From an uncultured Flavonifractor sp. (GTDB lineage Bacteria > Bacillota > Clostridia > Oscillospirales > Oscillospiraceae): a stretch of DNA of 64,000 nt. Both the position numbers and the translations under genes were made by a program. Within the stretch, counting starts at the first letter, position 1, and every line of letters begins with the position of its first letter. The notes below the pieces were generated by a model that did not search any database, was not told the DNA's origin, and saw only the letters and a list, made by a program, of their open reading frames with translations. Location of the stretch: NCBI GenBank assembly GCA_944385575.1, contig CALWXT010000002.1:15476-79475 (forward strand), given 5' to 3'. Shown here in pieces: positions 9,450 to 43,150 of the stretch.

Positions 9450-9522
9450 ATAAATTGGGAACTTCCTCCTTTCAAATTCGTCTGATATAATAACAGGACA
9501 GAATTTGGAAGGAGGAGTTTTT

Positions 9523-10149
9523 ATGCGCAGATGGTTGGCAATGGCTCTGGCGGCGGGACTGTTGGCCGTGGGACTGTCCGGGTGCGCCATGGAGGCAACC
9601 ACGGAGAAGCCGGTGATCTACCTCTACCCGGAGGAGGAGACCCAGGTGAATGTCAAACTGGACTATGATGGCACGCTGACATCAACTTACCCTTCCTATG
9701 AAAATGGCTGGACGGTGGATGCGGCCCCAGATGGCACCCTCACCGATCCCTCCACCGGGCGGCAGTATTACTGCCTGTACTGGGAGGGGGAGACGGACAC
9801 GGAGTATGACTTCTCCACCGGCTTCTGTGTGGCGGGAGCGGACACCGCCGCTTTTTTGGAGGGTGCTCTGGCCGACCTGGGTCTGACGGAACAAGAGGCC
9901 AACGAGTTTATTATTTACTGGCTGCCCAGGATGGAAGGGAACGCCTGGAACCTGATTTCCTTCCAGACTACGGCCTACACCGACAGCGCTGTGCTTACCA
10001 TTGACCCGGTACCTGATACCCTGATCCGGGTGTTTATGGCCTGGCAGGGCCTGGACGAGCCGGTGGAGGTACAGCCCCAGCGTCTCACCGCCCCGGAGCG
10101 CACCGGCTTCACCGCCGTGGAGTGGGGAGGAACGGAGGTAACGCGATGA
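9523..10149 (+). CDS. Lipoprotein of unknown function (KPVIYLYP family), copy 1
   Basis: Lipobox LSGC; KPVIYLYP...VEWGG; GGAGG RBS before ATG 9523. Confidence 0.8.
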   Translation: MRRWLAMALAAGLLAVGLSGCAMEATTEKPVIYLYPEEETQVNVKLDYDGTLTSTYPSYENGWTVDAAPDGTLTDPSTGRQYYCLYWEGETDTEYDFSTGFCVAGADTAAFLEGALADLGLTEQEANEFIIYWLPRMEGNAWNLISFQTTAYTDSAVLTIDPVPDTLIRVFMAWQGLDEPVEVQPQRLTAPERTGFTAVEWGGTEVTR

Positions 10150-10790
10150 AAAAATGGCTGCTGCTGATGCTGGCTTTGACCCTGCTGGCTGCGGGACTGG
10201 CTGGCTGTGCGAAAAACGTGCATGAGGATGGTGCCGTGGCCCCTGCCAAGCCAGTGATTTATCTTTATCCCGAGCGTGAGACACAAGTCTCCGTCACCCT
10301 GGATTTTGACGGGGAACTGACCTCCACTTACCCGGCGTACGGGGAGGGGTGGACGGTGGACGCTTCTCCCGACGGTACCCTCACTGATCCCCTTACCGGC
10401 AGGGAATACTACTGCCTGTTCTGGGAGGGTGAGACGGACACAGAGTATGACTTCTCCACCGGCTTCTGTGTGGCGGGAGCGGACACCGCCGCTTTCTTGG
10501 AGGATGCTCTGGCCGACCTGGGCCTGACGGAACAAGAGGCCAACGAGTTTATTATTTACTGGCTGCCCAGGATGGAAGGGAACGCCTGGAATCTGATTTC
10601 TTTCCAGACTACGGCCTACACTGACAGTGCTGTGCTTACCATCGACCCGGTACCTGATACCCTGATCCGGGTGTTTATGGCCTGGCAGAGCCTGGACGAG
10701 CCGGCGGAAGTACAGCCCCAGCGTCTCACCGCCCCGGAGCGCATCGGCTTCACCGCCGTGGAGTGGGGCGGAGCGGAGGTCAAATCCTGA
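10146..10790 (+). CDS. Lipoprotein of unknown function (KPVIYLYP family), copy 2
   Basis: Lipobox LAGC; ATGA overlap with copy 1; 3' half nearly identical to copy 1. Confidence 0.8.
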   Translation: MKKWLLLMLALTLLAAGLAGCAKNVHEDGAVAPAKPVIYLYPERETQVSVTLDFDGELTSTYPAYGEGWTVDASPDGTLTDPLTGREYYCLFWEGETDTEYDFSTGFCVAGADTAAFLEDALADLGLTEQEANEFIIYWLPRMEGNAWNLISFQTTAYTDSAVLTIDPVPDTLIRVFMAWQSLDEPAEVQPQRLTAPERIGFTAVEWGGAEVKS

Positions 10791-10937: not shown

Positions 10938-12479
10938 ATGTCCCATCAGACCGTGATCGTCCTGGACTTCGGCGGCCAGTACAACCAGCTTATTGCCCGC
11001 CGTGTGCGGGAGTGCGGCGTATACTGCGAAGTCAAGCCCTATACCACCCCCCTGGAGCAGCTGAAAGCCATGGAGCCCATCGGCTTCATCTTTACCGGCG
11101 GCCCCAACAGCGTGTATGACGAAAAGGCACCCCACGTGGACCCCGCCATTTTTGAGCTGGGTGTGCCCGTGCTGGGTATCTGCTACGGCTGCCAGCTCAT
11201 GGCCCATACCCTGGGCGGCCAGGTCACTGCCGCTCAGGAGGACACTGCCCGGGAGTACGGCAAGACCGAGACCTATTATGATACTGCCTGCAAGATCTTC
11301 AAGGGCCTGCCGGAGAAGGGAATCTCCTGGATGAGCCACGGAGATTATATGGCCAAGGTGCCCGAGGGCTTTGCTCTCACCGCCCACACCGACGCCTGCC
11401 CCAACGTGGCCATTGCCGACGAGAAGCGGGGCTTCTACGGCGTGCAGTATCACCCTGAGGTGAATCACACCGAGCACGGAGTGGATATGATCCGTAACTT
11501 CCTCTATGAGGTGTGCGGCGCCACCGGCGACTGGACCATGGGAGATTATAAGAATACTGCCATCAGGGAGATCCGGGAGAAGGTAGGGGACGGCAAGGTG
11601 CTGCTGGCCCTGTCCGGCGGCGTGGACTCCTCCGTGGCCGCCGCCCTGCTGGCTGAGGCGGTGGGCAAGCAGCTCACCTGTGTGTTTGTGGATCACGGCC
11701 TGATGCGCCTCAACGAGGGCGACGAGGTGGAGGCCGCTTTTGCACGTTGGGACATCAACTTTGTCCGTGTGGACGCTGAGGCCCGGTTTCTGCTGAAGCT
11801 GGCCGGCGAGTCTGAGCCGGAGCGCAAGCGGAAGATCATCGGCGAGGAGTTTATCCGCGTCTTTGAGGAGGAAGCCAAGAAGATCGGTCGTGTGGATTAC
11901 CTGGTGCAGGGTACCATTTATCCCGACGTGATCGAGTCGGGCGCCGGCGACGCCGCCGTCATCAAGAGCCACCACAACGTGGGCGGTCTGCCCGACTACG
12001 TGGACTTCAAGGAGATCATCGAGCCGCTGCGTCTGCTGTTCAAGGACGAGGTGCGTCAGCTGGGCCGTGAGCTGGGCCTGCCCGAGTACCTGGTCATGCG
12101 TCAGCCCTTCCCAGGCCCCGGCCTGGCCATCCGCGTCATCGGCGACCTGACCAAGGAAAAGCTGGACACCCTGCGGGAGGCCGATGCCATCTACCGGGAG
12201 GAGATCGCCGCCGCCGGTGAGGACAAGAATATCAACCAGTATTTCGCTGTGCTCACCAATACCCGCTCTGTGGGCGTCATGGGTGATGGCCGGACCTACG
12301 ACTATACCCTGGCCCTCCGGGCGGTGACCACCAGCGACTTTATGACCGCCGACTGGGCCCGCATCCCCTATGACGTGCTGGACCGCATTTCTACCCGCAT
12401 CGTCAATGAGGTCAAGGGAATCAACCGCATTGTTTACGATATTACGTCCAAGCCCCCGGCAACTATCGAGTGGGAGTAA
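10938..12479 (+). CDS. guaA: GMP synthase (glutamine-hydrolysing)
   Basis: LDFGGQY, GICYG, QYHPE, SGGVDS, C-terminal KPPATIEWE. Confidence 0.98.
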
Positions 12480-12600: not shown

Positions 12601-13755
12601 TTACTTTTTTCCGGCCTCTTTTTCGGCCTTTTCCAGCCTTCCGGCAACGGCTCCTAGGTCATCTGCCGTGGCGCCTATGCCTCCGGCCCTCCGATCCAGA
12701 TCGACGGCCAGCGTGTCCATTTTATCCGGGTACATATGGGAGTAAGTGGACATGGCTACCTCCACCGTATCGCCCAGGCGTTCAGCGACGGCGACGATGG
12801 AGTACCCCAGATCCACCAGCAGCGCGGCATGGCTATGCCGGAGGTCATGTATCCTGATCTGTTGCACACCGGCGGCCGCTGCGGCCCTGTTCAGTTCCCG
12901 GTTCAGCGTCCCATGGGTGAAGTAAAAAATCCGGTCGGAGGGCTGGATTTCATATAGGGCCCCGATATAGTTTTCCACTTCCTCATAGAGGAAGGCGGGC
13001 ATGGAGACATCGCGGACGCTGTTATCGCTCTTCGGGGGGCCTGCCTCGTCCTCCCCGTTTTTGCGGTGGTGCGTCTTGTCTATCCGGCAGATATGGGAGG
13101 GAAGTATATCGGCTGGCGTGAGGGCCAGGCACTCCCCCACCCGCAGCCCGAGCCAGTACAGGAGCATGAAGGCCACCCGGAAGGCTGGCTTCTCTACCTG
13201 GGCAAGCGCCGCCTCAAATTCTGCCGTCGTCCAGAACTTCATGCGGCCCGCCTTCTTCTTCCCCATGAATCCGGCCGGCCGGCACGGGTTTTGCCGCAGT
13301 CCATAGTACATCACCGCATAGTTGAAGATGGAAGAAAGCCGGCTGTTGATCGTCCGAAGGTAGGTTGCTGCATACTTTTTCCCTGTGCGGGGATTCGTTT
13401 TGGACATCAGCTCATTTTGCCATTTGCGGATCGTCACGGCGTCTATTTTGTCGACCTGGAGGGAGCCGAAGAACGGAAGCAGCCACTTTTCAATGATGCT
13501 GTCCTGCGTTCCCCGGGTCGTGCCCCTGACGCGGTGCTCTGCGTCCTCTTGGTAGAGTTCCACCAGGGAGGCGAAGAACATATCACAGCTCCGGCTATTC
13601 TTCAGAAGGAATTCTCTCTCGAAGGCCAGCGCGGAACTCCGGGTGTCGAACCCCTCCCGCTTCTTTTTCTTCCGCTTCCCTGTCCAATCCTCATACCAAA
13701 AAGCAGCCATCCATTTGACCGCGCCGCTCTTGGTCTTGTATTTGTAGGCAGGCAC
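12601..13755 (-). CDS. int: Tyrosine integrase
   Basis: Arm-binding N-terminus (KKREGF); GLRVGE, K, IHDLRHSHA, RLGD and catalytic Y (TYSH). Confidence 0.95.
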   Translation of the reverse strand: MPAYKYKTKSGAVKWMAAFWYEDWTGKRKKKKREGFDTRSSALAFEREFLLKNSRSCDMFFASLVELYQEDAEHRVRGTTRGTQDSIIEKWLLPFFGSLQVDKIDAVTIRKWQNELMSKTNPRTGKKYAATYLRTINSRLSSIFNYAVMYYGLRQNPCRPAGFMGKKKAGRMKFWTTAEFEAALAQVEKPAFRVAFMLLYWLGLRVGECLALTPADILPSHICRIDKTHHRKNGEDEAGPPKSDNSVRDVSMPAFLYEEVENYIGALYEIQPSDRIFYFTHGTLNRELNRAAAAAGVQQIRIHDLRHSHAALLVDLGYSIVAVAERLGDTVEVAMSTYSHMYPDKMDTLAVDLDRRAGGIGATADDLGAVAGRLEKAEKEAGKK

Positions 13756-30172: not shown

Positions 30173-30193
30173 TGATAGCGTGGAGGATTGGAA

Positions 30194-31909
30194 ATGAGCA
30201 CCAACATCACCACACCGGCGGCCCAGCCACGGGCCACCACTCCGGACGGATTCAAAGTCTGGTGCAGCTTCGACGAGATCGTGAAACTGGACACCCTGAA
30301 GCCGAATCCCCGGAACCCTAACAAGCACCCGGAGGCCCAGCTCGACCTCCTGGCGAACATCATCAAGAAGGGCGGCTGGCGGGCGTGTATAACCGTCAGC
30401 CGCCGCAGCGGTTTTATTGTGAAAGGCCACGCCCGGCAGGAAGCCGGCGCCCGGGCCGGCGGTCTCTACGCTCCTATCGAGTGGCAGGACTACGCCACCG
30501 AGGCCGACGAGATGGCCGACCTGATCGCCGACAACCGGATCGCCGAGCTGGCGGTGCTCGACGAGCAGGGCATCACCGAGCTGCTGGCGGAGCTGGAGGT
30601 CAACACCGTGGGCCTTGACCCTGAAATGAGCGGTTTTACTTCCGAGCAGATCAGGGACATGGTGGAGAAGGCCAAGAAGGGCCAGGATGAAGCGGAGAAG
30701 CAGGCCGCCCACTTGACCCTCCAGCAAAAGTTCCTGATTTCTCCCTTCACCGTTCTGGACGCCCGCGGGGGCTTCTGGGCCGAGCGCAAGCGGGCCTGGC
30801 GGGCCCTGGGTATTCGCTCCGAAATCGGCCGCGGTGCCGACGAGAAGAAGACCGAGGGCGGCCTTACCTTTGCCCGCAGCTCCCAGCCCCCGGCGGTCTA
30901 CCAGGCCAAGAATGAGTATGAGGCCAAGATCGGGCAGAAAATCTCCTGGGAGGAGTTCGCCGAGCTCTTTCCCGAGGTCATGGCCCAGGGCGGCACCTCC
31001 ATATTTGACCCGGTTCTCTGCGAGGTGGCCTACCGCTGGTTCTGCCCGCAGGGGGGCTCCATCATTGACCCCTTCGCCGGCGGGAGCGTCCGCGGCGTCG
31101 TGGCGGCCCTCACCGGCCGACGCTATACCGGCGTTGACCTTTCCGGCCGCCAGATCGAGGCCAACCTTCAGAATTGGGAGGAAATCTCTCACGAAAGCGT
31201 CTTGGAGGACAGTGACGACATCGAAGTGCCGGCGCCCCGCTGGATAAACGGGGACAGCAGCCACATCGACGAGCTGGCCCCGGGAGAATACGATTTGTTC
31301 TTCACCTGCCCGCCCTATGCCGACCTGGAAGTGTATAGCGATAAGCCAGAAGACCTGTCCAACAAGGATTATCCGGAGTTCCTGGTGCTCTACCGAGCTA
31401 TTATCCAGAAGGCGGCGGCCATGCTGAAGCCGAACCGCTTCGCCTGCATCGTTGTGGGCGATGTGCGGGACAGCTGGGGCTTCTACCACAACTTCGTGAG
31501 CGACACCATCGCGGCCTTCCGGGACGCCGGCCTGGAGCTCTACAACGAAGCCATCCTGATTATGCCCTTCGGCAGCCTCCCGATCCGGGCCGGCAAGCAG
31601 TTTGCCAGCGGCCGGAAGCTGGGCAAGGCCCACCAGAATGTGCTTGTGTTCTGCAACGGAGACCCGGCCCAGAGCGGGGCCTTCAACCTGGAGGAGCCGG
31701 AGGGGTATGCGCGGGACATTGACCGCTATCTCGCCGCCGGCGCCGGCAAGCTGGGCCAGGAGCACCAGAAGGTGTTCGTTTTCTCCAAGGGAGACCCCAT
31801 CCAGGCATCCGCCGACATCGGCGCACCTGAAGATATGGAGGCCCTGGAGGACACCGACAACGCCCGCCTCTTGCGGGAGCTGCTGGGCAGCGAACACCCT
31901 GAAGAATAG
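30194..31909 (+). CDS. ParB-like domain fused to amino-DNA methyltransferase
   Basis: PNPRNP..IVKGHAR..IADNR (ParB); IIDPFAGGS (motif I); TCPPY (motif IV). Confidence 0.85.
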   Translation: MSTNITTPAAQPRATTPDGFKVWCSFDEIVKLDTLKPNPRNPNKHPEAQLDLLANIIKKGGWRACITVSRRSGFIVKGHARQEAGARAGGLYAPIEWQDYATEADEMADLIADNRIAELAVLDEQGITELLAELEVNTVGLDPEMSGFTSEQIRDMVEKAKKGQDEAEKQAAHLTLQQKFLISPFTVLDARGGFWAERKRAWRALGIRSEIGRGADEKKTEGGLTFARSSQPPAVYQAKNEYEAKIGQKISWEEFAELFPEVMAQGGTSIFDPVLCEVAYRWFCPQGGSIIDPFAGGSVRGVVAALTGRRYTGVDLSGRQIEANLQNWEEISHESVLEDSDDIEVPAPRWINGDSSHIDELAPGEYDLFFTCPPYADLEVYSDKPEDLSNKDYPEFLVLYRAIIQKAAAMLKPNRFACIVVGDVRDSWGFYHNFVSDTIAAFRDAGLELYNEAILIMPFGSLPIRAGKQFASGRKLGKAHQNVLVFCNGDPAQSGAFNLEEPEGYARDIDRYLAAGAGKLGQEHQKVFVFSKGDPIQASADIGAPEDMEALEDTDNARLLRELLGSEHPEE

Positions 31910-34560: not shown

Positions 34561-35232
34561 ATGAAGATAATCGGAATACTATCTGCCAATTTGGTATTTT
34601 TCTCGCTCATTGCATTTGGAATTACTTTTCCATTATGGATCATACTTAAAATTATGCACAAGAAGCCAAAAAAGCGGATTTTTATCATCCCGCTTCTCAC
34701 ATTTGTAGTGTTCTTCGTTATATTTGGCTTCACATACACGCCAGACCCAAACGCCCCGGCGGAGACCGTGACACCACAGGATGCTGTGTCTTCATCAAAA
34801 CCGGAGCTGGAGCAAAACGGCAGCCAAGAACCGGAGAACTCAACCGGGCTTTCAAAACCTACGATAGACCATGACGATACCACAGCGCCAGAGGTTATAC
34901 CGGAACCAACAACACCAACACCGGAGCCGGAACCGGAGGAAACGCCAGAGCTGGAAACACCAGAGCCAGAAGTCACCCCCACCCCGGAGCCGGAACCGGA
35001 GCCCACACCAGAAGCAACACCGGTGCCCACGCCGACACCGACGCCGATGCCCGATCCGGAGCCTGTCGAGACCACCCCCCAAGAGATTTATGTCGTTATC
35101 ACCCCAACCGGCTCTAAATACCATTACCCAGGGTGCCGCCATGTGAACTCCTCCACTGCGACCACATTAACACTGGAGGAGGCCAAAAGCATGGGCTACA
35201 CTCCTTGTGGTACTTGCCATCCGCCAATGTAA
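34561..35232 (+). CDS. Moron membrane protein: two TMs, Pro/Glu/Thr stalk, C-terminal Ada-like Zn module
   Basis: AT-rich 5' end; EPEPEPTP repeats; TPTGSKYHYPGC..AKSMGYTPCGTC. Confidence 0.85.
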   Translation: MKIIGILSANLVFFSLIAFGITFPLWIILKIMHKKPKKRIFIIPLLTFVVFFVIFGFTYTPDPNAPAETVTPQDAVSSSKPELEQNGSQEPENSTGLSKPTIDHDDTTAPEVIPEPTTPTPEPEPEETPELETPEPEVTPTPEPEPEPTPEATPVPTPTPTPMPDPEPVETTPQEIYVVITPTGSKYHYPGCRHVNSSTATTLTLEEAKSMGYTPCGTCHPPM

Positions 35233-35238
35233 ACCAAC

Positions 35239-35273
35239 AAAGCCAGTCGCTTTTGCGGCTGGCTTTTCTCTTT
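35239..35273 (+). terminator. Moron terminator
   Basis: AAAGCCAGTCGC-TTTT-GCGGCTGGCTTTTCTCTTT. Confidence 0.8.
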
Positions 35274-35283
35274 GAAAAAAGTG

Positions 35284-35324
35284 TTGACTTTTTGAGCCAC
35301 AATAATTATAATATTTTTGTGGCA
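35284..35324 (+). promoter_or_regulatory. Strong promoter with overlapping operator
   Basis: TTGACT-17-TATAAT; GCCACAA...TTGTGGC inverted repeat straddling the -10. Confidence 0.8.
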
Positions 35325-35342
35325 CAGAAAGTAGGTGATGAC

Positions 35343-35516
35343 TTGAGCCCACGCACAGGTCGTCCAAAATCAGATGCACCGAAAGGAATCGAGGTTAAGG
35401 CCAGAATTGATGCCGCCACCAACAAACGGCTCAATGACTACTGCGAGAAGCACCAGAAGACCAGAACCGATGTTGTCCGAGAAGGTATCAATCTGATTTT
35501 GGAACAAGAAAAGTGA
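35343..35516 (+). CDS. Ribbon-helix-helix (Arc/CopG-like) repressor
   Basis: TTG start after AGGTG; GRPK..IEVKARID..LNDYC..TRTDVVREGI. Confidence 0.8.
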   Translation: MSPRTGRPKSDAPKGIEVKARIDAATNKRLNDYCEKHQKTRTDVVREGINLILEQEK

Positions 35517-35615
35517 AGGACACCCGCCGCCCGTCAAAGCATAGCGAGTGTCCTCCGAAACACAACCCCGAGGGATTGATAAATCCATTCTATCAGGCCT
35601 CCGGGGGAATTTCAA
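35505..35615 (-). ncRNA. Predicted antisense RNA (about 75 nt) with its own promoter
   Basis: Minus-strand TTGAAA-17-TAGAAT with TG extension; 14-bp stem with G-U pairs followed by a U-rich tail. Confidence 0.65.
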
Positions 35616-35630
35616 GGAGGAAAAATAGAA

Positions 35631-35867
35631 ATGGACACAATTCACATGTGCTATGAAGGTTATATCCACTCCGAAGTATACCAGCAGCCGACCGAAAAGG
35701 GCCAGGAGTTGAGCGATATTCTCGCCCAGACCGCGGAGCTCCTTCCCAAGCGGGAATACCTGATTTTGGAGGAGGCCGTCAATCGGTATTGCAGCCGGTA
35801 TGAGGAGCGGGCCTTCGCCGCCGGCTTCCGCTTCGCAACCAAGTTGTGGACGGAGGGCCTGGCATGA
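35631..35867 (+). CDS. Small helical hypothetical protein
   Basis: AAGGAGG RBS; EERAFAAGFRFATKL. Confidence 0.75.
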   Translation: MDTIHMCYEGYIHSEVYQQPTEKGQELSDILAQTAELLPKREYLILEEAVNRYCSRYEERAFAAGFRFATKLWTEGLA

Positions 35868-36085
35868 CTACGAGAGAGACTATCGAAGCCGAGCTGAAGC
35901 AGATGGTATTTGACCTCCTCCATGAGCGTGATCGCGAGGAGCTGGAGGAGGGCCACAAGGACGCCTTGGCCCATGTCGCGGCCGCCGAGCAGGCCGGTAT
36001 CCTGGACAACACCCAGGCCACCGCCTGGAGGAATGAGGTCGAGAAGGCCACCGAGTTCAGCAGAATCCGCATGAAGGGAGAGTAA
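35864..36085 (+). CDS. Small hypothetical protein
   Basis: ATGA overlap, GGAGG RBS. Confidence 0.65.
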   Translation: MTTRETIEAELKQMVFDLLHERDREELEEGHKDALAHVAAAEQAGILDNTQATAWRNEVEKATEFSRIRMKGE

Positions 36086-36092
36086 CAGCCAC

Positions 36093-36851
36093 ATGGAAGG
36101 TCTTCAGGTATTCCAGTACCAAGGCAAAGGTGTCCGAACCGTTGACCAGAATGGTCAGCCCTGGTGGGTGCTGGCCGATGTGTGCGAAGTATTGGAGTTG
36201 AAAAACCCTGCAAGAGTGGCCGCTCGTTTGGACGAGGACGAAAAGAATACCCTAACTTTTGTGAAGGGTATTTCTGGCCCTGGGAATCCGACTATGACCA
36301 TCATCAATGAGCCTGGGCTTTACTCGGTGATCCTGCGGAGCAACAAGCCGGAGGCGAAAGCCTTTAAGCGGTGGATTACCCATGAAGTCCTCCCCACCAT
36401 TCGCGCCACAGGGGCCTATGGAGGCCCCCAGGCCACCCCCGCAATCGCTGATACCCTGGAACGCATGACGGGCGTTGTGGAGGCGCTGACGGGCCGTATC
36501 GAGGCCCTGGAGCGGCAGGCACAAGGAAAGCTGAATTTTGAGCCAACCGGGACGCCGCCGGGTGAAATACCTCGCACTACACGGCGCCACTGGATGAGGA
36601 AATTCAACGAAAAGCTGGAGTCCATGCAATACGACCTGGGCATATCAAAACCGGCTATCCTTCGCCGCCTCTATGACCAAGTGGAAAAGCACTTTGATGT
36701 CGTTCTGGATGAAGAGCGATTCCGGTATATTGAAAAAACCGGGCAAGAAGAGTGCTCTGTGCTTGAAATTATCTACCGAAATGAGGAGTATCGGGCCTAT
36801 TTCCAGTATATTATCAACCAAAAGATGGGCCCTGAGTATTGGGATTGGTGA
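36093..36851 (+). CDS. BRO-N domain antirepressor
   Basis: PWWVLADVCEVL, INEPGLYSVILRSNKPEAKAFKRWITHEVLPTIR.TG.Y. Confidence 0.9.
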   Translation: MEGLQVFQYQGKGVRTVDQNGQPWWVLADVCEVLELKNPARVAARLDEDEKNTLTFVKGISGPGNPTMTIINEPGLYSVILRSNKPEAKAFKRWITHEVLPTIRATGAYGGPQATPAIADTLERMTGVVEALTGRIEALERQAQGKLNFEPTGTPPGEIPRTTRRHWMRKFNEKLESMQYDLGISKPAILRRLYDQVEKHFDVVLDEERFRYIEKTGQEECSVLEIIYRNEEYRAYFQYIINQKMGPEYWDW

Positions 36852-37430: not shown

Positions 37431-38840
37431 GTGCCTACACTACATGAGATAGGCAGAATAGGCCAAAACCGATGGGGCGGCGTCTTCCGTGAAGAGTTCC
37501 TGACGGAGCTTCAAGGATGGCGCGGCGTCCGGGTCTACAAAGAGATGTCGGAAAACGACGACATTGTGGGGGCTATCCTTTTTGCAATCGAGATGCTGAT
37601 CCGGCAGGCCACCTGGGACATCCAGCCGGGCGGAGACACCGCCAAGGACAAGGAGGCCGCCGAGTTCGTGCGGAGCTGCATGGACGATATGAGCGACACC
37701 TGGACGGACACCATCGCGGAAATCCTTTCCTTCCTGACCTTCGGCTGGAGCGCCCATGAGATTGTCTATAAGCGACGCATTGGCCGGAGCAACGATCCCC
37801 GCCTCAAAAGCAAGTATGGGGACGGTCTGATCGGCTGGCAGAAGCTGCCCATCCGGGCCCAAGAGACCCTTTATGAGTGGCGATATGACGATCGAGACAA
37901 CTTGATGGGGCTTGTTCAGATGCCGCCTCCGGACTATGGCCTGATCGAGATACCCGTGGAAAAGTTGTTACTCTTCCGCACAAAGAGCCGGAAAGGAAAC
38001 CCGGAAGGACGGAGCATCCTCCGCAACGCTTACCGGGATTGGTACTTCAAGCGACGCATCCAGGAAATCGAGGGTATCGGCATCGAGCGAGACCTCGCCG
38101 GCTTCCCAGTGCTAACCGCCCCCGTGGGCGTAGACATCTGGGACAGCGAGGACAGCGAAATGGTCTCCATCCGGCAGCGAGCGGAACACATTGTGCAGAA
38201 TATCAGACGGGACAGCCTGGAGGGGCTGGTCAAACCGGCCGGCTGGACGATGGAGCTTCTATCCACCGGCGGCCGCCGGCAGTTCGACACCAACGCCGTT
38301 ATCGAGCGGTACGACAGCCGGATCGCCATGACGGTGCTGGCTGACTTCGTGCTGCTGGGCCACCAGCAGGTCGGTAGCTTCGCATTATCCAGCGACAAGA
38401 CGAAGCTCTTCAGCACCGCCATCGGCGCCTACCTGGACATCATCTGTGAGGTTTTCAACAACCAGGCAATTCCGCGACTTATCGACCTAAACGGTGACCA
38501 CTTCAAGGAAATCACCAAATACCCAAAAATGACCCACGGTGATGTGGAGAGCCCGAACCTTGCCAACCTTGGCACCTTCCTCCGGGAAGTCACCGGGGCA
38601 GGCATACTTATCCCGGACGAAGGCGTGGAGGACTATGTGCGCCAGGCCGCGGGGCTCCCGGATCGCCTGGAGGACTATGGGACACAGCTCAACCAAAACA
38701 ACCGGGAACGCCAGAGGCAGCCCCAGGTCCAGCAGGGACGCACCGCAGCGGGCCAGGAGGAGGGCCAGGAAGGCGAACTCCCGGATGACGACGAAGCGGC
38801 CGTAGAGGCCGCCAAGCGGCGCCTTGGGAGGGATGATTGA
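37431..38840 (+). CDS. Portal protein (DUF935-like)
   Basis: 469 aa upstream of MuF; GNPEGRSILR, GIERDLAGFP, GSFALS; AAAGGAGG RBS. Confidence 0.85.
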   Translation: MPTLHEIGRIGQNRWGGVFREEFLTELQGWRGVRVYKEMSENDDIVGAILFAIEMLIRQATWDIQPGGDTAKDKEAAEFVRSCMDDMSDTWTDTIAEILSFLTFGWSAHEIVYKRRIGRSNDPRLKSKYGDGLIGWQKLPIRAQETLYEWRYDDRDNLMGLVQMPPPDYGLIEIPVEKLLLFRTKSRKGNPEGRSILRNAYRDWYFKRRIQEIEGIGIERDLAGFPVLTAPVGVDIWDSEDSEMVSIRQRAEHIVQNIRRDSLEGLVKPAGWTMELLSTGGRRQFDTNAVIERYDSRIAMTVLADFVLLGHQQVGSFALSSDKTKLFSTAIGAYLDIICEVFNNQAIPRLIDLNGDHFKEITKYPKMTHGDVESPNLANLGTFLREVTGAGILIPDEGVEDYVRQAAGLPDRLEDYGTQLNQNNRERQRQPQVQQGRTAAGQEEGQEGELPDDDEAAVEAAKRRLGRDD

Positions 38841-41800
38841 TGCAGCGGATCGCCATGATGAAGCGGGCCCGGGTGTATCCCATCCTGAAGGCAAAAAAGA
38901 GCAAGGGCGCCCAGGATGTTCTTGACCGCCTGAACTCCTTCCTCAATGCCGCGGAGCCAGAGCCGGTCTACTGGCTCACACGCTTCTGGAATGACCAGCA
39001 GCAGGCCGTTACCTACAAGGAGCTGCGGGATGCCATCCAGCAGGGGTATCTTGACGAGAAGACCCTGGCAGCCTGGCAACAGGACTATGCTAACTTCGTC
39101 AATGAGCACCTGAAGGGAATCTGGCAGGACGCAGCCAAGGCAGCAAATGCCGCCCTGGAGGCGGCCCACCCCGACTTCTTCTATGACCCCATGGGGGAAG
39201 GCATTCAGAACTGGACGGCCACCCATGGCGCCGAATGGGTAACGAATATCTCCGACGAGCAGCGGGAGGCCATGGTTTCCATGATAGACCGGGCCACCAC
39301 CGGAGCCTGGACAGGTGACGAGCTGGCTCGGGCCATCCGGCCCCTGATCGGCCTGACCAAGGCCCAGGCCCTCGCCAACCTGAACTACTACGAGCACATG
39401 AAGGCGACCCTTCTGGAGAATAACCCCACCATGAAGCCCGAGACGGCAGCCAAGCGGGCCAAGGAGGCCGCGGCAAAGTACGCCGCCAAGCAGCACCGCC
39501 AGCGGGCCTATACCATCGCCACCACGGAGCTGGCCTTTGCCTACAACAAAGGCGCCGACGATGGCATAATCCAGGCTCAGCAGCAGGGCATCATCGGGAA
39601 AGCCAAGCGTGTCTGGGTGACCGCTGGCGATGATGGTGTATGCCCTATATGTGCAGCTCTTGATATGCAGTCAATCGACATGGATGAAGAGTTCGACTTC
39701 AAGGGGAAAAGCCTATATGGTGGCCAGAAGAAAACGCCTCCAGCACATCCGAGATGTGGGTGTGCTGTGATGTACGAAGTCGAGCTTCCAGACATGGAGC
39801 CAGAGAAGCCAGAGGCGCCCCCGGTGACCTGGGCAGAGCCCCAGACTCCGGAGCCTCCGGAACCCCCGCCGGTGGTGAGCGCCCCGGGGATTGGGATGCC
39901 GGATGGCATGACCCATATGGGCCATGCAAACCTGGGCGGAACCGGGGAAATGCACCTATACCGGGATGCTGACGGCCAGGACTGGCTATTCAAGCCGGCC
40001 CAAACCAAGAGTGGAACCCCAGAATCCTTCCGGGCCTATGTCCAGGAGGCGGGTTACAAGGTGCAGTACATCGTTGACCCGGACACGGCCGTTCCTGTCG
40101 GAGTCGGGGAGCTGGACGGGAAGTTCGGTGCCTTCCAGAAACGGATCACCACCATTGGGAGCGCAACGGACTACAAAGCCTGGCAGCACAATGGAGGCCC
40201 CCTTCCTGATAGCGCCGCCCAGCAGTTCCAGCGGGAGCACATCACCGATTGGCTCCTCGGGAACTACGACAGCCACGGCGGGAACTTCGTCACCGACAGC
40301 GCCGGCCGGCTGGTAGGCATTGACAAGGAGCAAGCCTTCAAGTACATCAGCAAGGACGGCGCACAGGCCATGAGCTACGCCTTCCACCCCAACAAGAGCT
40401 ACGGGGAAACGGAGCCTATCTACAACACCATTTACCGCCGCTTTGCCAAGGGAGAGCTTGACCTTGACCTCCAGGACACCCTTGTCTATATCAAGCGCGT
40501 CGAGGCCATTCCTGACAGCGAATACAGGGAGATTTTCAGGGAGTACGCCGAGTCCCTACATGGTAAGGGTAAAGAGGCCGAGGCCCTTCTGGACAGCATT
40601 GTGGAACGGAAAGACAACCTTCGGGAGAGCTACCGGTCTTTTTATTCCGACCTCCTCACCGAGCGCACCGGGAAGAAGCAGGTGTTCACTTGGGCGGACG
40701 AACTCACCCAGCAGGCGAAGCAGCCCCTGGCAGCCGTTACCCATTCCACAGACGCCCTGAAGAAGATGAATGTGGCCGAGCTGAAGCAGCTTGCCAAGCA
40801 GCAGGGCATCCCGTACTACAACAAGTTCAACAAGAAGGAGCTGGTCGAAGCCATATCCGACCCGGTAAAGGCCGTGGAGATCAGCGCAAAGACCAAGGCA
40901 AAGTTGTTGAACCTGGAGGCCACCCGTGCCGAGCGCCTGGGTCGGAAGGCAGAGAAACAGCCAAGTCCGCCTCGCTCTGGGGCCATTGACGCCGGCGACC
41001 TGTTCCAAGACTTCGGGCAGATTCCGACCCAGCGCATCGGCGTCGCGGTATCCAGCGATGAGGGCATGGTGGAGGGCCTGAACCTGACCGCCCGGAAAAT
41101 CAACCTGGACGGCCAAGATGTCTATGAAATTACCGGGAAGCTGGCTGAAGGAACCTGGTCAAAGACCTGGGACGCCCTGAAAAAGCAGAGCGAAGTAAAG
41201 CAGCTCACCTTCGAGCAGGCAGACGATACCCTGGCCCTTCTGTCTTCTCGTCCGATAAATATGCACGGCGTTGAAATCAAGGCCCGCACACTGGAGGACT
41301 CCGGCAGCACCTTCCAGCTCTATGTCCATAACGGTTCCCAGCAGTACAATGCCTGGAAGGGTTTCTTCCGGATCAGGGTGCCGGCCACCGGAAACGGGGC
41401 GGCAGACGCCAAGGCAGCAAAAAACCTCCTTGACAGAGCCGGCCTTTCCAACCTGGCTTCCACACCGTCAGCAGCGGCCGAGGCGACATTCAAGAAAAGA
41501 AGACTCCTATGGCAGCACGCCCCTGGGAGAATGAAAGAGCTGAATGGGTTGCAAGGCGCTGCTTTGGAGAGTACACTGGATACAATCCTTCGGGAGGAAG
41601 GCATTGACCCGGGCAGAGTTGGGAGAATGGTTATGCGGAAAGTGTTCGACGGCTATCAGACCCTTGTGGAAGAGGGCATCAGCTCCGAATACCAGCAGGC
41701 CGGCCTTAAATATCTATGGGCCGGCGTGAGAAGACCGGAAGCCCTTGTCGGTATGCTGAATGGAAAGGGCTTCATGTCTACCAATTCCCGCTGCCTATAT

Positions 41801-42256
41801 GGCATGGACTTCACCGGGGCAAGCCCGGGAGATGACATGAGAAGCGGAGGAAGCGACAGCGTATTCACCCGGATCGGCGTCAAAATGAAAAACGGTAAGC
41901 AGCCGCGATTCGACGACAGCTATCTCGGTAGGAATTATCGGGTCATCATCGACCCCAAAGAGTTGGAGCGCACCGACTGGTACGCATACACCAGTGACAG
42001 CTACGGAACCACGGAAGAGAGCGAACTGCTCGGGAGGAAAAAGGCTATGGATTTTATTGACGCCGTGGCCACAGCCTGGCGACCGAGTAACGAAGTCATG
42101 TTCCGGCACGGCATACCGAAGGAGCACTTCACTGCGATCCTGTGCCCGGACGATGCCAGTCGGGCCAAACTCCTGTCCGAGCTGAAGGGCGCAGGGATCA
42201 CCAAGATAAACGGGACACCAATCGAGGACTTTGTGAAAGTGGGGAACGAGATATGA
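38840..42256 (+). CDS. MuF (SPP1 gp7-like) minor head protein with kinase, Rho-N-like and ART-like extensions; candidate polymorphic toxin
   Basis: IATTE..WVTAGDDGVCPIC..HPRCGC MuF core; LGGTG/FKP/NYDSHGGN/ID kinase; MNVAELKQLAK..KKELVEAI; GFMST..VFTR..NEVMF. Confidence 0.85.
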   Translation: MQRIAMMKRARVYPILKAKKSKGAQDVLDRLNSFLNAAEPEPVYWLTRFWNDQQQAVTYKELRDAIQQGYLDEKTLAAWQQDYANFVNEHLKGIWQDAAKAANAALEAAHPDFFYDPMGEGIQNWTATHGAEWVTNISDEQREAMVSMIDRATTGAWTGDELARAIRPLIGLTKAQALANLNYYEHMKATLLENNPTMKPETAAKRAKEAAAKYAAKQHRQRAYTIATTELAFAYNKGADDGIIQAQQQGIIGKAKRVWVTAGDDGVCPICAALDMQSIDMDEEFDFKGKSLYGGQKKTPPAHPRCGCAVMYEVELPDMEPEKPEAPPVTWAEPQTPEPPEPPPVVSAPGIGMPDGMTHMGHANLGGTGEMHLYRDADGQDWLFKPAQTKSGTPESFRAYVQEAGYKVQYIVDPDTAVPVGVGELDGKFGAFQKRITTIGSATDYKAWQHNGGPLPDSAAQQFQREHITDWLLGNYDSHGGNFVTDSAGRLVGIDKEQAFKYISKDGAQAMSYAFHPNKSYGETEPIYNTIYRRFAKGELDLDLQDTLVYIKRVEAIPDSEYREIFREYAESLHGKGKEAEALLDSIVERKDNLRESYRSFYSDLLTERTGKKQVFTWADELTQQAKQPLAAVTHSTDALKKMNVAELKQLAKQQGIPYYNKFNKKELVEAISDPVKAVEISAKTKAKLLNLEATRAERLGRKAEKQPSPPRSGAIDAGDLFQDFGQIPTQRIGVAVSSDEGMVEGLNLTARKINLDGQDVYEITGKLAEGTWSKTWDALKKQSEVKQLTFEQADDTLALLSSRPINMHGVEIKARTLEDSGSTFQLYVHNGSQQYNAWKGFFRIRVPATGNGAADAKAAKNLLDRAGLSNLASTPSAAAEATFKKRRLLWQHAPGRMKELNGLQGAALESTLDTILREEGIDPGRVGRMVMRKVFDGYQTLVEEGISSEYQQAGLKYLWAGVRRPEALVGMLNGKGFMSTNSRCLYGMDFTGASPGDDMRSGGSDSVFTRIGVKMKNGKQPRFDDSYLGRNYRVIIDPKELERTDWYAYTSDSYGTTEESELLGRKKAMDFIDAVATAWRPSNEVMFRHGIPKEHFTAILCPDDASRAKLLSELKGAGITKINGTPIEDFVKVGNEI

Positions 42257-42615
42257 GCATTGACCGCCGAAAAGCCTACTACTACCGCTGGACAGGAGAA
42301 AAGAAGTTCTCTGGTATTGCCGTGGATGTCCATATCCATACTGGGCTGGACGGGAAGGAGCTTCGCTTCATATCCCCGCCGGAGCGCCCCCACGCACAGC
42401 CCGGCGCCGTGATCCGGGAGACCGCCGACGGATTCATCTTCCAAAGCGACGGATTCAAGCCCGGGGAATGGGTATTCAAAGAGCTCACCATCGAGGAGTT
42501 CCGCCGCTGGATCTGCAAGCGTGTCGGAATGGGGGATGCTATCGCCTCCAAGATTGCCACCACCGACGACCTTCACGAATGGTATCGGAAGACCTTTCAC
42601 TTCCCAACTGAATGA
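42253..42615 (+). CDS. Candidate immunity protein for the MuF toxin
   Basis: ATGA overlap with MuF stop; 120 aa; followed by terminator 42622-42655. Confidence 0.65.
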   Translation: MSIDRRKAYYYRWTGEKKFSGIAVDVHIHTGLDGKELRFISPPERPHAQPGAVIRETADGFIFQSDGFKPGEWVFKELTIEEFRRWICKRVGMGDAIASKIATTDDLHEWYRKTFHFPTE

Positions 42616-42676
42616 CCCGACAGGGGCGGGGCGCCGCGGCGCTTCGCCCTTTTTCTATGCCAAGGAGTGATTCCAA

Positions 42677-43150
42677 ATGTTTACCTTCAACGAACTGGTC
42701 GGCCGGCAGCCAGACGGCGTGAAAAAGACCGCCGGAACAATTACAGGCCGGTTCTCCATCAAAAAGGCCGACGAGGACAAACACCTGGCGTTTGGGTGGG
42801 CCTATGTATCACAGGATGAAGAGGGCCAGCAGACCGAGGACTGGTCTGGCGACCAACTGGAGCCGGCCGAGCTGGAGCAGGCCGCCTATGGGTTCGTGGA
42901 GCTCTATCGTGAAGGCGGAGAGATGCACAAAAGAGGCGGATGCGCTGTCCTGGTTGAGAGCATGGTCTTCACCACCGAGCAGCAGAAGGCCCTCGGAATC
43001 CCGGAAGGCACCCTTCCGGTGGGCTGGTGGATCGGATTAAAAGTCACAGATGATGATGTCTGGGCCAAGGTCAAGGATGGCACATACCCGATGTTTTCCA
43101 TCGAGGGCTCGGCCATCCGCGAAGAAATCCCGGAGGAACCGGATGATTGA
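42677..43150 (+). CDS. XkdF-like prohead serine protease
   Basis: FGWAYV, EMH, VES, WWIG.KV..D.W..VK.G..MFSIEG. Confidence 0.85.
   Translation: MFTFNELVGRQPDGVKKTAGTITGRFSIKKADEDKHLAFGWAYVSQDEEGQQTEDWSGDQLEPAELEQAAYGFVELYREGGEMHKRGGCAVLVESMVFTTEQQKALGIPEGTLPVGWWIGLKVTDDDVWAKVKDGTYPMFSIEGSAIREEIPEEPDD

Follow-up and report, generated by a model that had tools for sequence, protein, structure and literature searches.

Which part of a phage head protein that bears two enzyme domains needs an antidote, and what would such a protein do in a newly infected cell? The question is raised by a temperate prophage in a 64,000-nucleotide stretch of DNA from an uncultured Flavonifractor sp. (GenBank assembly GCA_944385575.1, contig CALWXT010000002.1, positions 15,476 to 79,475 of the forward strand), here called the window. 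One of its gene products, P0001, joins a MuF minor-head region to a predicted kinase and a predicted ADP-ribosyltransferase (ART), and its gene is followed directly by that of a small protein, P0002. The evidence consists of sequence comparison and predicted structures. We consider it probable that the locus specifies a virion-delivered ART toxin, guarded by an inhibitor and accompanied by a dispensable kinase, with nucleic acid as the most likely substrate. One toxin with a non-lethal accessory is more likely than two warheads, because the partner tracks the ART and the kinase is repeatedly lost or found without a partner. The features of the locus, with positions in the window and residues in amino acids (aa), are as follows.

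37431..38840, + strand: portal protein gene (PHROG 113, portal, E 5e-93), whose stop overlaps the start of the MuF gene
38840..42256, + strand: MuF-kinase-Rho_N-middle-ART gene, 1138 aa from the ATG (P0001)
38840..39784, + strand: MuF minor-head (portal-associated) region, residues 1-315, ending in an HPxCxC motif
39785..39892, + strand: Pro/Glu-rich linker, poorly conserved; divergence boundary between close phage variants
39893..40723, + strand: predicted atypical kinase domain (PI4KII/CtkA-like), residues 352-628, with K385, E403, D477, H479, N482 and D495
40757..40855, + strand: Rho_N (helix-extension-helix) module, residues 640-672 (Pfam E 8.8e-9)
40973..41671, + strand: unnamed beta-sheet domain (about residues 712-875) and helical connector, from the predicted model
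41672..42253, + strand: predicted DarT-fold ART domain, residues 945-1138, with R984, D999, F1009, R1011, D1053, N1084 and E1085
42253..42615, + strand: 120-aa predicted immunity protein P0002, ATGA-coupled; assigned from linkage and a predicted complex on the ART cleft
42622..42651, + strand: terminator-like 13-pair hairpin 3' of the immunity gene
42677..43150, + strand: XkdF-type head protease gene (Pfam Peptidase_S78_2, E 5e-25), the downstream boundary

Residues are numbered from the ATG; the program-made list of open reading frames (ORFs) starts P0001 at a TTG (38837). The landmarks placed in an earlier note on this DNA agree with the translation, i.e. H303 of HPRCGC at 39746, L365 of LGGTG at 39932, I494 of the ID motif at 40319, L640 of the Rho_N module at 40757 and E1085 at 42092. 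The catalytic motif that it put at 40262 fits as the N of NYDSH, while the D of DWLLG lies at 40247. Its description of a 120-aa ORF that is ATGA-coupled and closed by a terminator also fits: the TGA of the ORF ending at 42256 overlaps the ATG at 42253, and 11 of 28 relatives have a hairpin behind the partner gene, compared with none of 560 shuffles. Hairpins overall are not enriched in this region (11 versus 7.0 +/- 2.4). A sigma-70 scan gave no promoter ahead of the partner gene (one site in 6.6 kb, elsewhere), and no RNA data set is listed as holding this stretch.

P0002 matches no Pfam, PHROG or NCBIfam family. A homologue lies directly downstream in 161 of the 162 ART loci that were scored (179 were examined, of which 11 lacked the ART and six ended before a partner could be seen), the sole exception being L177, which has a 122-aa ORF with a weak partner match. 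A second, overlapping set of loci gave a partner in 71 of 73; the other two are L237, with a weak match, and L250, with none. The predicted complex of P0002 with the ART scored 0.81, and the best of three controls 0.00. This mark is reached by 116 of 157 solved complexes and by two of 215 mismatched pairs, counts that hold roughly with the alignments used. Between runs, at least 85% of the contacts are shared, with a predicted local distance difference test (pLDDT) value of at least 86 for the partner. Nearly all of the listed toxin-side interface residues (28 of 31) lie in the ART, where residues 963-965, 991-1002, 1009, 1027-1032, 1052-1057 and 1080-1083 surround the conserved cleft, and H47 of the partner, which is nearly invariant, touches the invariant D1053. 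According to this model P0002 would cover the active-site cleft of the ART. In its genomic linkage the P0002 gene behaves like an immunity gene, the candidate role given to it in the earlier note, and the predicted complex points the same way.

Natural variants form a deletion series (full length, without Rho_N, without kinase, short MuF) that indicates which part needs the antidote. Four MuF-middle-ART proteins have no kinase (P0197, P0206, P0209 and P0252), and the complete kinase-less locus L247, the downstream DNA of which is readable, retains the partner (E 1e-30). In L099, of the same phage family, a 313-aa short MuF protein is followed at once by the protease gene and no partner is present. 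Among 68 loci retrieved with an alignment of distant kinases, the three complete ones that lack this ART (two distinct proteins) all lack the partner. In a midpoint-rooted tree of 34 MuF regions, from which 5 of 29 non-redundant loci were omitted because they are truncated or bear another anchor, five kinase-less rows fall at several places, which fits repeated loss of the kinase; two of them are starred sisters of kinase-bearing proteins, and L099 is the starred sister of a full-length protein. As separate observations, loci L094 and L098 and protein P0210 carry the kinase-to-ART cargo on a different head anchor (Phage_min_cap2 in P0210), with the partner retained in L094 and L098; P0261 (3027 aa) contains two ART domains of this family and three PI3/4-kinase stretches; P0218 combines a NUDIX domain with the middle and ART domains; and in P0215 and P0174 intein-like segments lie close to where the MuF region ends.

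The pairing of kinase and ART recurs with unrelated ARTs. The kinase matches 12 mycobacteriophage records, including McProf gp54 (L257, 2788-6345), composed of a VG15 anchor, the kinase and a VIP2-type ART, and Onyinye gp16 (L258, 2961-6983), with the same kinase family and a VIP2-type ART. Both are annotated only as minor capsid and/or ADP-ribosyltransferase; their kinases show 26-38% identity, with hidden Markov model E values of 8e-40 and 5e-28. The kinase lies upstream of the ART and a small gene follows, as in P0001, whereas the anchor (in McProf), the type of ART and the downstream protein differ: the small proteins of the two phages are related to each other (35%, E 3e-13), and that of McProf is unrelated to P0002. 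In locus L284 (4501-9556) a kinase that stands by itself within a phage head cluster precedes two genes with VIP2/ART matches; P0167 and P0169 are fusions of the kinase with VIP2. Phrappuccino gp195 (L259, 3405 onward) is a further protein with an unannotated kinase of this family. Because the partner is kept without the kinase, gone without the ART and replaced where the ART is of VIP2 type, it goes with the ART. The earlier note had proposed a dual effector with only one apparent antidote. Two enzyme folds with conserved catalytic-type residues do stand on a MuF protein next to a single partner, but the kinase is more likely a non-lethal accessory, and one antidote is no anomaly when the partner tracks the ART and not the kinase.

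Recognition of both enzymes depended on structure, because P0001 has no Pfam DarT match and its PI3_PI4_kinase match reaches only E 0.07. Of its parts, the profile libraries identify MuF and Rho_N alone. With P0001 and alignments A1, A2 and A4 as queries, the PDB gave no sequence match for either enzyme domain, and PADLOC matched neither P0001 nor P0002. The per-domain structure check proposed earlier upheld both folds. The model of residues 712-1138 (pLDDT 91.8) has DarT as its top Foldseek match (E 5.5e-4; template modelling (TM) score for DarT1 0.58 on the target). In a wide fold search, four DarT chains rank first over residues 945-1138 (Z 9.1, 8.8, 8.6 and 8.1; root-mean-square deviation (rmsd) 3.4-4.1, 155-166 residues aligned), followed by Tpt1 (Z 6.4), SopF (5.9), CopC (5.8) and OspC3 (5.7). 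Across 141 ART domains from the matches listed, G1003, R1044, D1053, G1056 and E1085 are invariant, and R984, D999, F1009, D1046 and N1084 are kept in 139-140. Position 961 is Ala in P0001; in those relatives His occupies it in 76 cases, Ser in 28 and Ala in 21. Against a profile of four DarT1-type proteins (probability 66%, E 5.7e-5), A961 falls on the DarT His, the absence of which had been correctly noted, and E1085 on the catalytic Glu. That alignment is gapped around R52, D54, M71 and N104 of DarT1, which are not evidently matched in the ART. A profile of nine DarT2-type proteins matched weakly (probability 4.5%, E 0.009). Pfam DarT is matched at E <= 1 by 9 of 26 members of the ART family (best E 1.2e-4), and at E <= 1e-3 by 2 of 50 relatives, below the curated cut-off. 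Neither a macrodomain (DarG) nor NADAR adjoins the ART, whose neighbour P0002 has no Pfam family; the scan for such genes did not extend to other parts of the prophage.

Judged by its modelled fold, the domain is an ADP-ribosyltransferase of the DarT neighbourhood. It is not filed as DarT, because it scores below the family cut-off, lacks the His and has no hydrolase antitoxin beside it, and the locus is not a DarTG system; the DarT-like fold proposed earlier stands. The target could well be bases of single-stranded DNA or RNA; a protein is a somewhat unlikely target, NAD+ hydrolysis without a target is distinctly unlikely, and an inactive domain would be surprising. DarT was found in none of 61 near genomes and is present in 19 of 401 phylum-wide genomes, which supplied the comparison profiles. 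The ART-domain profile matches 2315 clusters at 50% identity, and none of 50,697 GenBank phages matches the ART region. The middle domain accompanies the ART in kinase-less and MuF-less relatives. It has no usable Atlas match and nothing named in BFVD, and its fold matches are weak (type III secretion chaperone, START and CYTH-like, Z <= 5.1; modelled within residues 712-1138, not folded alone). Many of the ART-family profile matches resemble the protein of L177 (2146-4332), a 594-aa middle-ART protein without MuF or kinase, encoded near tuf- and rpsJ-like genes and apparently chromosomal. Giant viruses, an iridovirus and a baculovirus also have uncharacterised proteins that resemble the ART region (BFVD; DUF5846/DUF5863 in the Atlas).

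The kinase domain was modelled with a pLDDT of 94.1 and with five C-lobe helices. Its closest fold matches are PI4KII-alpha (Z 14.1, rmsd 4.1, 229 residues aligned) and CtkA (Z 12.9, 3.6, 204), ahead of MavQ (Z 11.7), Fam20 (Z 11.4) and HipA (Z 9.2). Foldseek returned at least 500 matches at E <= 0.001, almost all kinases among the matches listed, again with the best TM-scores for PI4KII-alpha and CtkA. Across 30 sequences K385, D477, H479, N482 and D495 never vary and E403 hardly does. The model thus indicates an atypical kinase with an intact-looking site, nearer to PI4KII and CtkA than to HipA, so that from the HipA/PI3K-like kinase of the earlier note the kinase fold is retained and HipA moves behind other fold matches. 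HipA_C has no Pfam match in P0001, and two distant relatives match it below the cut-off. No HipB-type antitoxin neighbours the gene, which is flanked by those for the portal and P0002, and the locus is not a HipBA system. The fold does not settle whether the kinase acts on protein or lipid; a protein substrate is favoured because clostridial hosts are not known to use phosphoinositides. The Rho_N module behind the kinase likely binds nucleic acid and is missing from one sub-clade of relatives.

A search with residues 345-1138 gave 222 relatives, the best 120 of which are mostly full-length, with the same layout and 43-89% identity. The named ones belong to Bacillota (Oscillospiraceae, Lachnospiraceae, Christensenellales, Thermoanaerobacterium and others), and the same kinase and ART occur together in 4 of the 401 phylum-wide genomes, the source genome included. 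Among 112 aligned full-length proteins conservation is highest in the kinase (mean top-residue frequency 0.76), followed by MuF (0.65), the ART (0.61) and the middle domain (0.54). All domains and the partner are under purifying selection, with ratios of nonsynonymous to synonymous substitution rates against four relatives of 0.07-0.28 for five domains and 0.07-0.37 for the partner (2 of the 24 values were not computable). The earlier note had suggested looking for C-terminal variation among related prophages. No swap to another toxin was seen among the relatives listed, only losses (kinase-less, short MuF), and within the phage family so sampled the C-terminus appears fixed, unlike that of polymorphic toxins; since the cargo guided most of the searches, MuF relatives with other C-termini may have escaped them. 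Locus L081, a candidate swap, was rejected, its break adjoining an oppositely oriented glycosidase-like gene. L097, with the large gene in pieces and an intact partner, comes from a long-read-type assembly and was for that reason not used as evidence.

The following course of events would account for a guarded toxin with an accessory kinase. Toxin and inhibitor, the genes of which overlap, would be co-translated late from the head operon, and the inhibitor, with H47 against D1053, is predicted to bind the ART substrate cleft. Such contact would block ART toxicity in the producing cell, as with Bxa/Bsi, a MuF toxin and its contact inhibitor (PMC11699363), and RhsP2/RhsI2, another toxin blocked by a contact inhibitor (PMC11833690). 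By comparison with SPP1 gp7 and the published MuF-toxin model, the MuF region would dock the protein at the portal in few copies, from where it would be ejected without the inhibitor. In the new host the ART would use NAD+ and E1085 to ADP-ribosylate a target, and the host would stall. Rho_N may tether the kinase to nucleic acid, allowing it to phosphorylate nucleic-acid-bound host proteins, e.g. defence or transcription factors; this step is suggested only by analogy with T7 kinase, which phosphorylates host proteins of this kind (PMC13645617). Unlike T7 kinase, the kinase here would be pre-loaded in the virion. A bolder version, unlikely as a whole, has a temperate phage converting the anti-phage DarT fold into a weapon carried in the virion: as its DNA enters and before any phage gene expression, it would inject a nucleic-acid ART of an undescribed family (about 2300 clusters), held in check by an undescribed contact inhibitor and not by a hydrolase, along with a defence-disarming, nucleic-acid-tethered kinase. 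The pairing of kinase and ART would then be a recurrent pre-loaded kit that arose separately in clostridial phages (DarT fold) and in mycobacteriophages (VIP2 fold).

The position of the gene between those for the portal and the head protease, in a temperate prophage, supports delivery with the virion. Several observations weigh against the proposed toxin. With 1138 aa, P0001 is large for ejection. L250 is an ART locus without a partner-like gene downstream, and L247 is the single complete kinase-less locus with readable downstream DNA that was found. There is redundancy among the partner loci (at 85% identity, 29 of the first 80 complete genes remain), and the partner profile was built from 29 partners. 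Partner identity tracks kinase identity (rho 0.73) nearly as well as ART identity (0.80), a correlation confounded by shared descent, which predicts it. The DarT match is moderate (Z 8-9, rmsd 3.4-4.1, 10-14% identity) and does not fix the substrate, the DarT His is replaced (A961), and P0001 has no Pfam DarT match.

Some of these points bear on the substrate. It is somewhat unlikely that the same guarded, virion-delivered ART modifies a protein (e.g. at arginine, possibly by ADP-riboxanation of the OspC/CopC type) or only hydrolyses NAD+. A feature search of the ESM Atlas pointed to the OspC family with a score of 0.91 (163 of 256 features shared), which is under the Atlas's own same-family threshold, and SopF, CopC, CteC and OspC3 follow DarT and Tpt1 at Z 5.7-5.9, with the DarT structures about 3 Z units higher. 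The conserved D999 and D1053 recall D177 and D231 used by OspC3 (PMC11598138), the Asp register being compared by description, and the catalytic R52/D54/M71/N104 of DarT1 (PMC11543638) find no evident counterpart in the gapped alignment; however, no member of the ART family (0 of 26, E <= 1) matches Pfam OspC, whereas nine match DarT. Rather less credence is due to the proposal that both enzymes are mild tools of host takeover or counter-defence, like T4 Alt and T7 kinase, and that P0002 only quiets the ART during head assembly. The architecture is not polymorphic, being fixed over more than 100 clusters at 43-89% identity, its kinase is the most conserved domain and is repeatedly paired with unrelated ART clades in head modules, and low-toxicity roles for MuF-ARTs have been proposed (PMC5576092), yet a near-obligate coupled inhibitor, predicted to lie over the cleft, typifies real toxins such as those of the Bxa/Bsi and RhsP2/RhsI2 pairs.

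Two toxic warheads, of which P0002 would neutralise only one or both, are improbable. The kinase active site is intact and highly conserved, and HipA-type kinases are toxins; set against this, the partner persists without the kinase (L247), is absent from kinase-only loci and changes with the type of ART, and the kinase is repeatedly lost. Still more improbable is a module that acts within the lysogen, as a toxin-antitoxin or abortive defence of the DarTG-like anti-phage kind. It would suit the DarT fold and the standalone middle-ART protein with a partner-like ORF outside a phage context (L177), but the cargo is fused to several head anchors (MuF; Phage_min_cap2 in P0210) in a late head-operon position, with no PADLOC match and no macrodomain or NADAR neighbour.

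Among known systems, the locus is a variant of MuF-toxin and polyvalent head cargo, with ART and immunity families that were not found described. MuF polymorphic toxins, for which small downstream ORFs are described (Jamet et al. 2017, PMC5576092), share with it the MuF anchor, the head module of a temperate phage and the occurrence in Bacillota, and toxins such as Bxa/Bsi of Bacteroides stercoris (PMC11699363) share a C-terminal ART and a small downstream gene (<150 aa) for an acting or, here, predicted contact inhibitor. The differences are the DarT fold of the ART, the Alt/VIP2 type being reported as often fused to MuF (PMC9503650), an immunity protein that matches no family, the interposed kinase and Rho_N, and a C-terminus that appears fixed within the phage family. 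Head proteins with several enzymes form a known class (PMC5512222, PMC9503650, PMC3482391). Polyvalent proteins (Iyer et al. 2017, PMC5512222; 2022, PMC9503650) likewise carry several enzyme domains, ARTs and kinases among them, on one head-associated polypeptide, proposed to be injected at an early stage. H-Y-D (Tox-ART-HYD2; PMC5512222, PMC9503650) is the type described for their ARTs, whereas the ART here has a Glu and the DarT fold; their kinases are described as lacking the C-terminal subdomain (PMC5512222), whereas the model of this one keeps a helical C-lobe; and a dedicated inhibitor gene is present here.

DarT1 and DarT2, the single-stranded DNA ARTs of DarTG (PDB 8baq, 7omv, 7omu, 7yk3; PMC11543638), are the best structural match (Z 8.1-9.1), with the same motif order and the position of the catalytic Glu kept. 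They differ in the His replaced here by Ala and in the R-x-D, Met and Asn of DarT1, not evidently kept; the ART of P0001 is, moreover, fused to a virion protein, and its antidote is a predicted steric inhibitor, not a macrodomain or NADAR hydrolase. The kinase shares its fold and the Lys/Asp/Asn/Asp catalytic layout with PI4KII-alpha, CtkA, MavQ, Fam20 and HipA, and differs from the solved atypical kinases in its low identity (at most about 16%), DKE in place of DFG/DxG and the lack of a HipB-type partner. T7 kinase (PMC13645617), also a kinase followed by a likely nucleic-acid-binding module, is a functional analogue, not claimed as a relative; it is expressed early, whereas the kinase here is likely virion-borne. 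No description of this architecture, the ART family, the inhibitor family or a kinase in a MuF protein was found in the literature covered, which excludes most subscription papers and the supplements of PMC5512222, PMC9503650 and PMC5576092, where they could be listed.

How MuF cargo acts once it has been injected is an open question, and in most of the characterised cases the cargo is one known toxin. The locus supplies a large DarT-fold ART family together with its inhibitor family and a phage kinase family, and the profile libraries searched have a name for none of the three. The unannotated kinase in cultured mycobacteriophages makes it directly testable whether a kinase is injected with phage DNA. 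If the proposed reading holds, a capsid-delivered enzyme that modifies DNA or RNA would reverse the known role of DarT, host defence against phages.

The prophage is inserted directly after a guaA-like gene (10938-12479; identity read from sequence), with its integrase gene at 12601-13755, and also encodes terminase, portal, XkdF protease, major head protein and tail sheath. The MuF region matches Pfam Phage_Mu_F (residues 210-311, E 1.4e-8) and the PHROG head morphogenesis category (E 1e-37). The DNA stretch is present in chicken-gut, other gut and sludge metagenomes, and a 57.8-kb contig from another study spans the locus, except for a diverged 97-base linker; because contigs of other studies show the same arrangement, it is not an assembly artefact. 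The close variants X4 and X8 show 162 differences over 2.5 kb of portal-MuF and 42 over 3.5 kb from kinase to protease, with the linker at 39785-39930 diverged, as if the cargo block had been exchanged as a unit.

Elsewhere in the window, a lower-GC insert with small ORFs (34561-36851) separates terminase and portal. It contains the gene of a 223-aa protein, hydrophobic at its N-terminus, with a Pro/Glu linker and a metal-binding end that weakly matches the Ada type (Pfam E 0.14), as well as a Bro-N antirepressor-like gene (E 5e-25). Directly before the terminase genes lies a 573-aa gene (30188-31909) with a DNA methylase domain (N6_N4_Mtase, E 7e-9), and just outside the prophage there are two tandem, highly similar lipoprotein-like genes (9505-10790).

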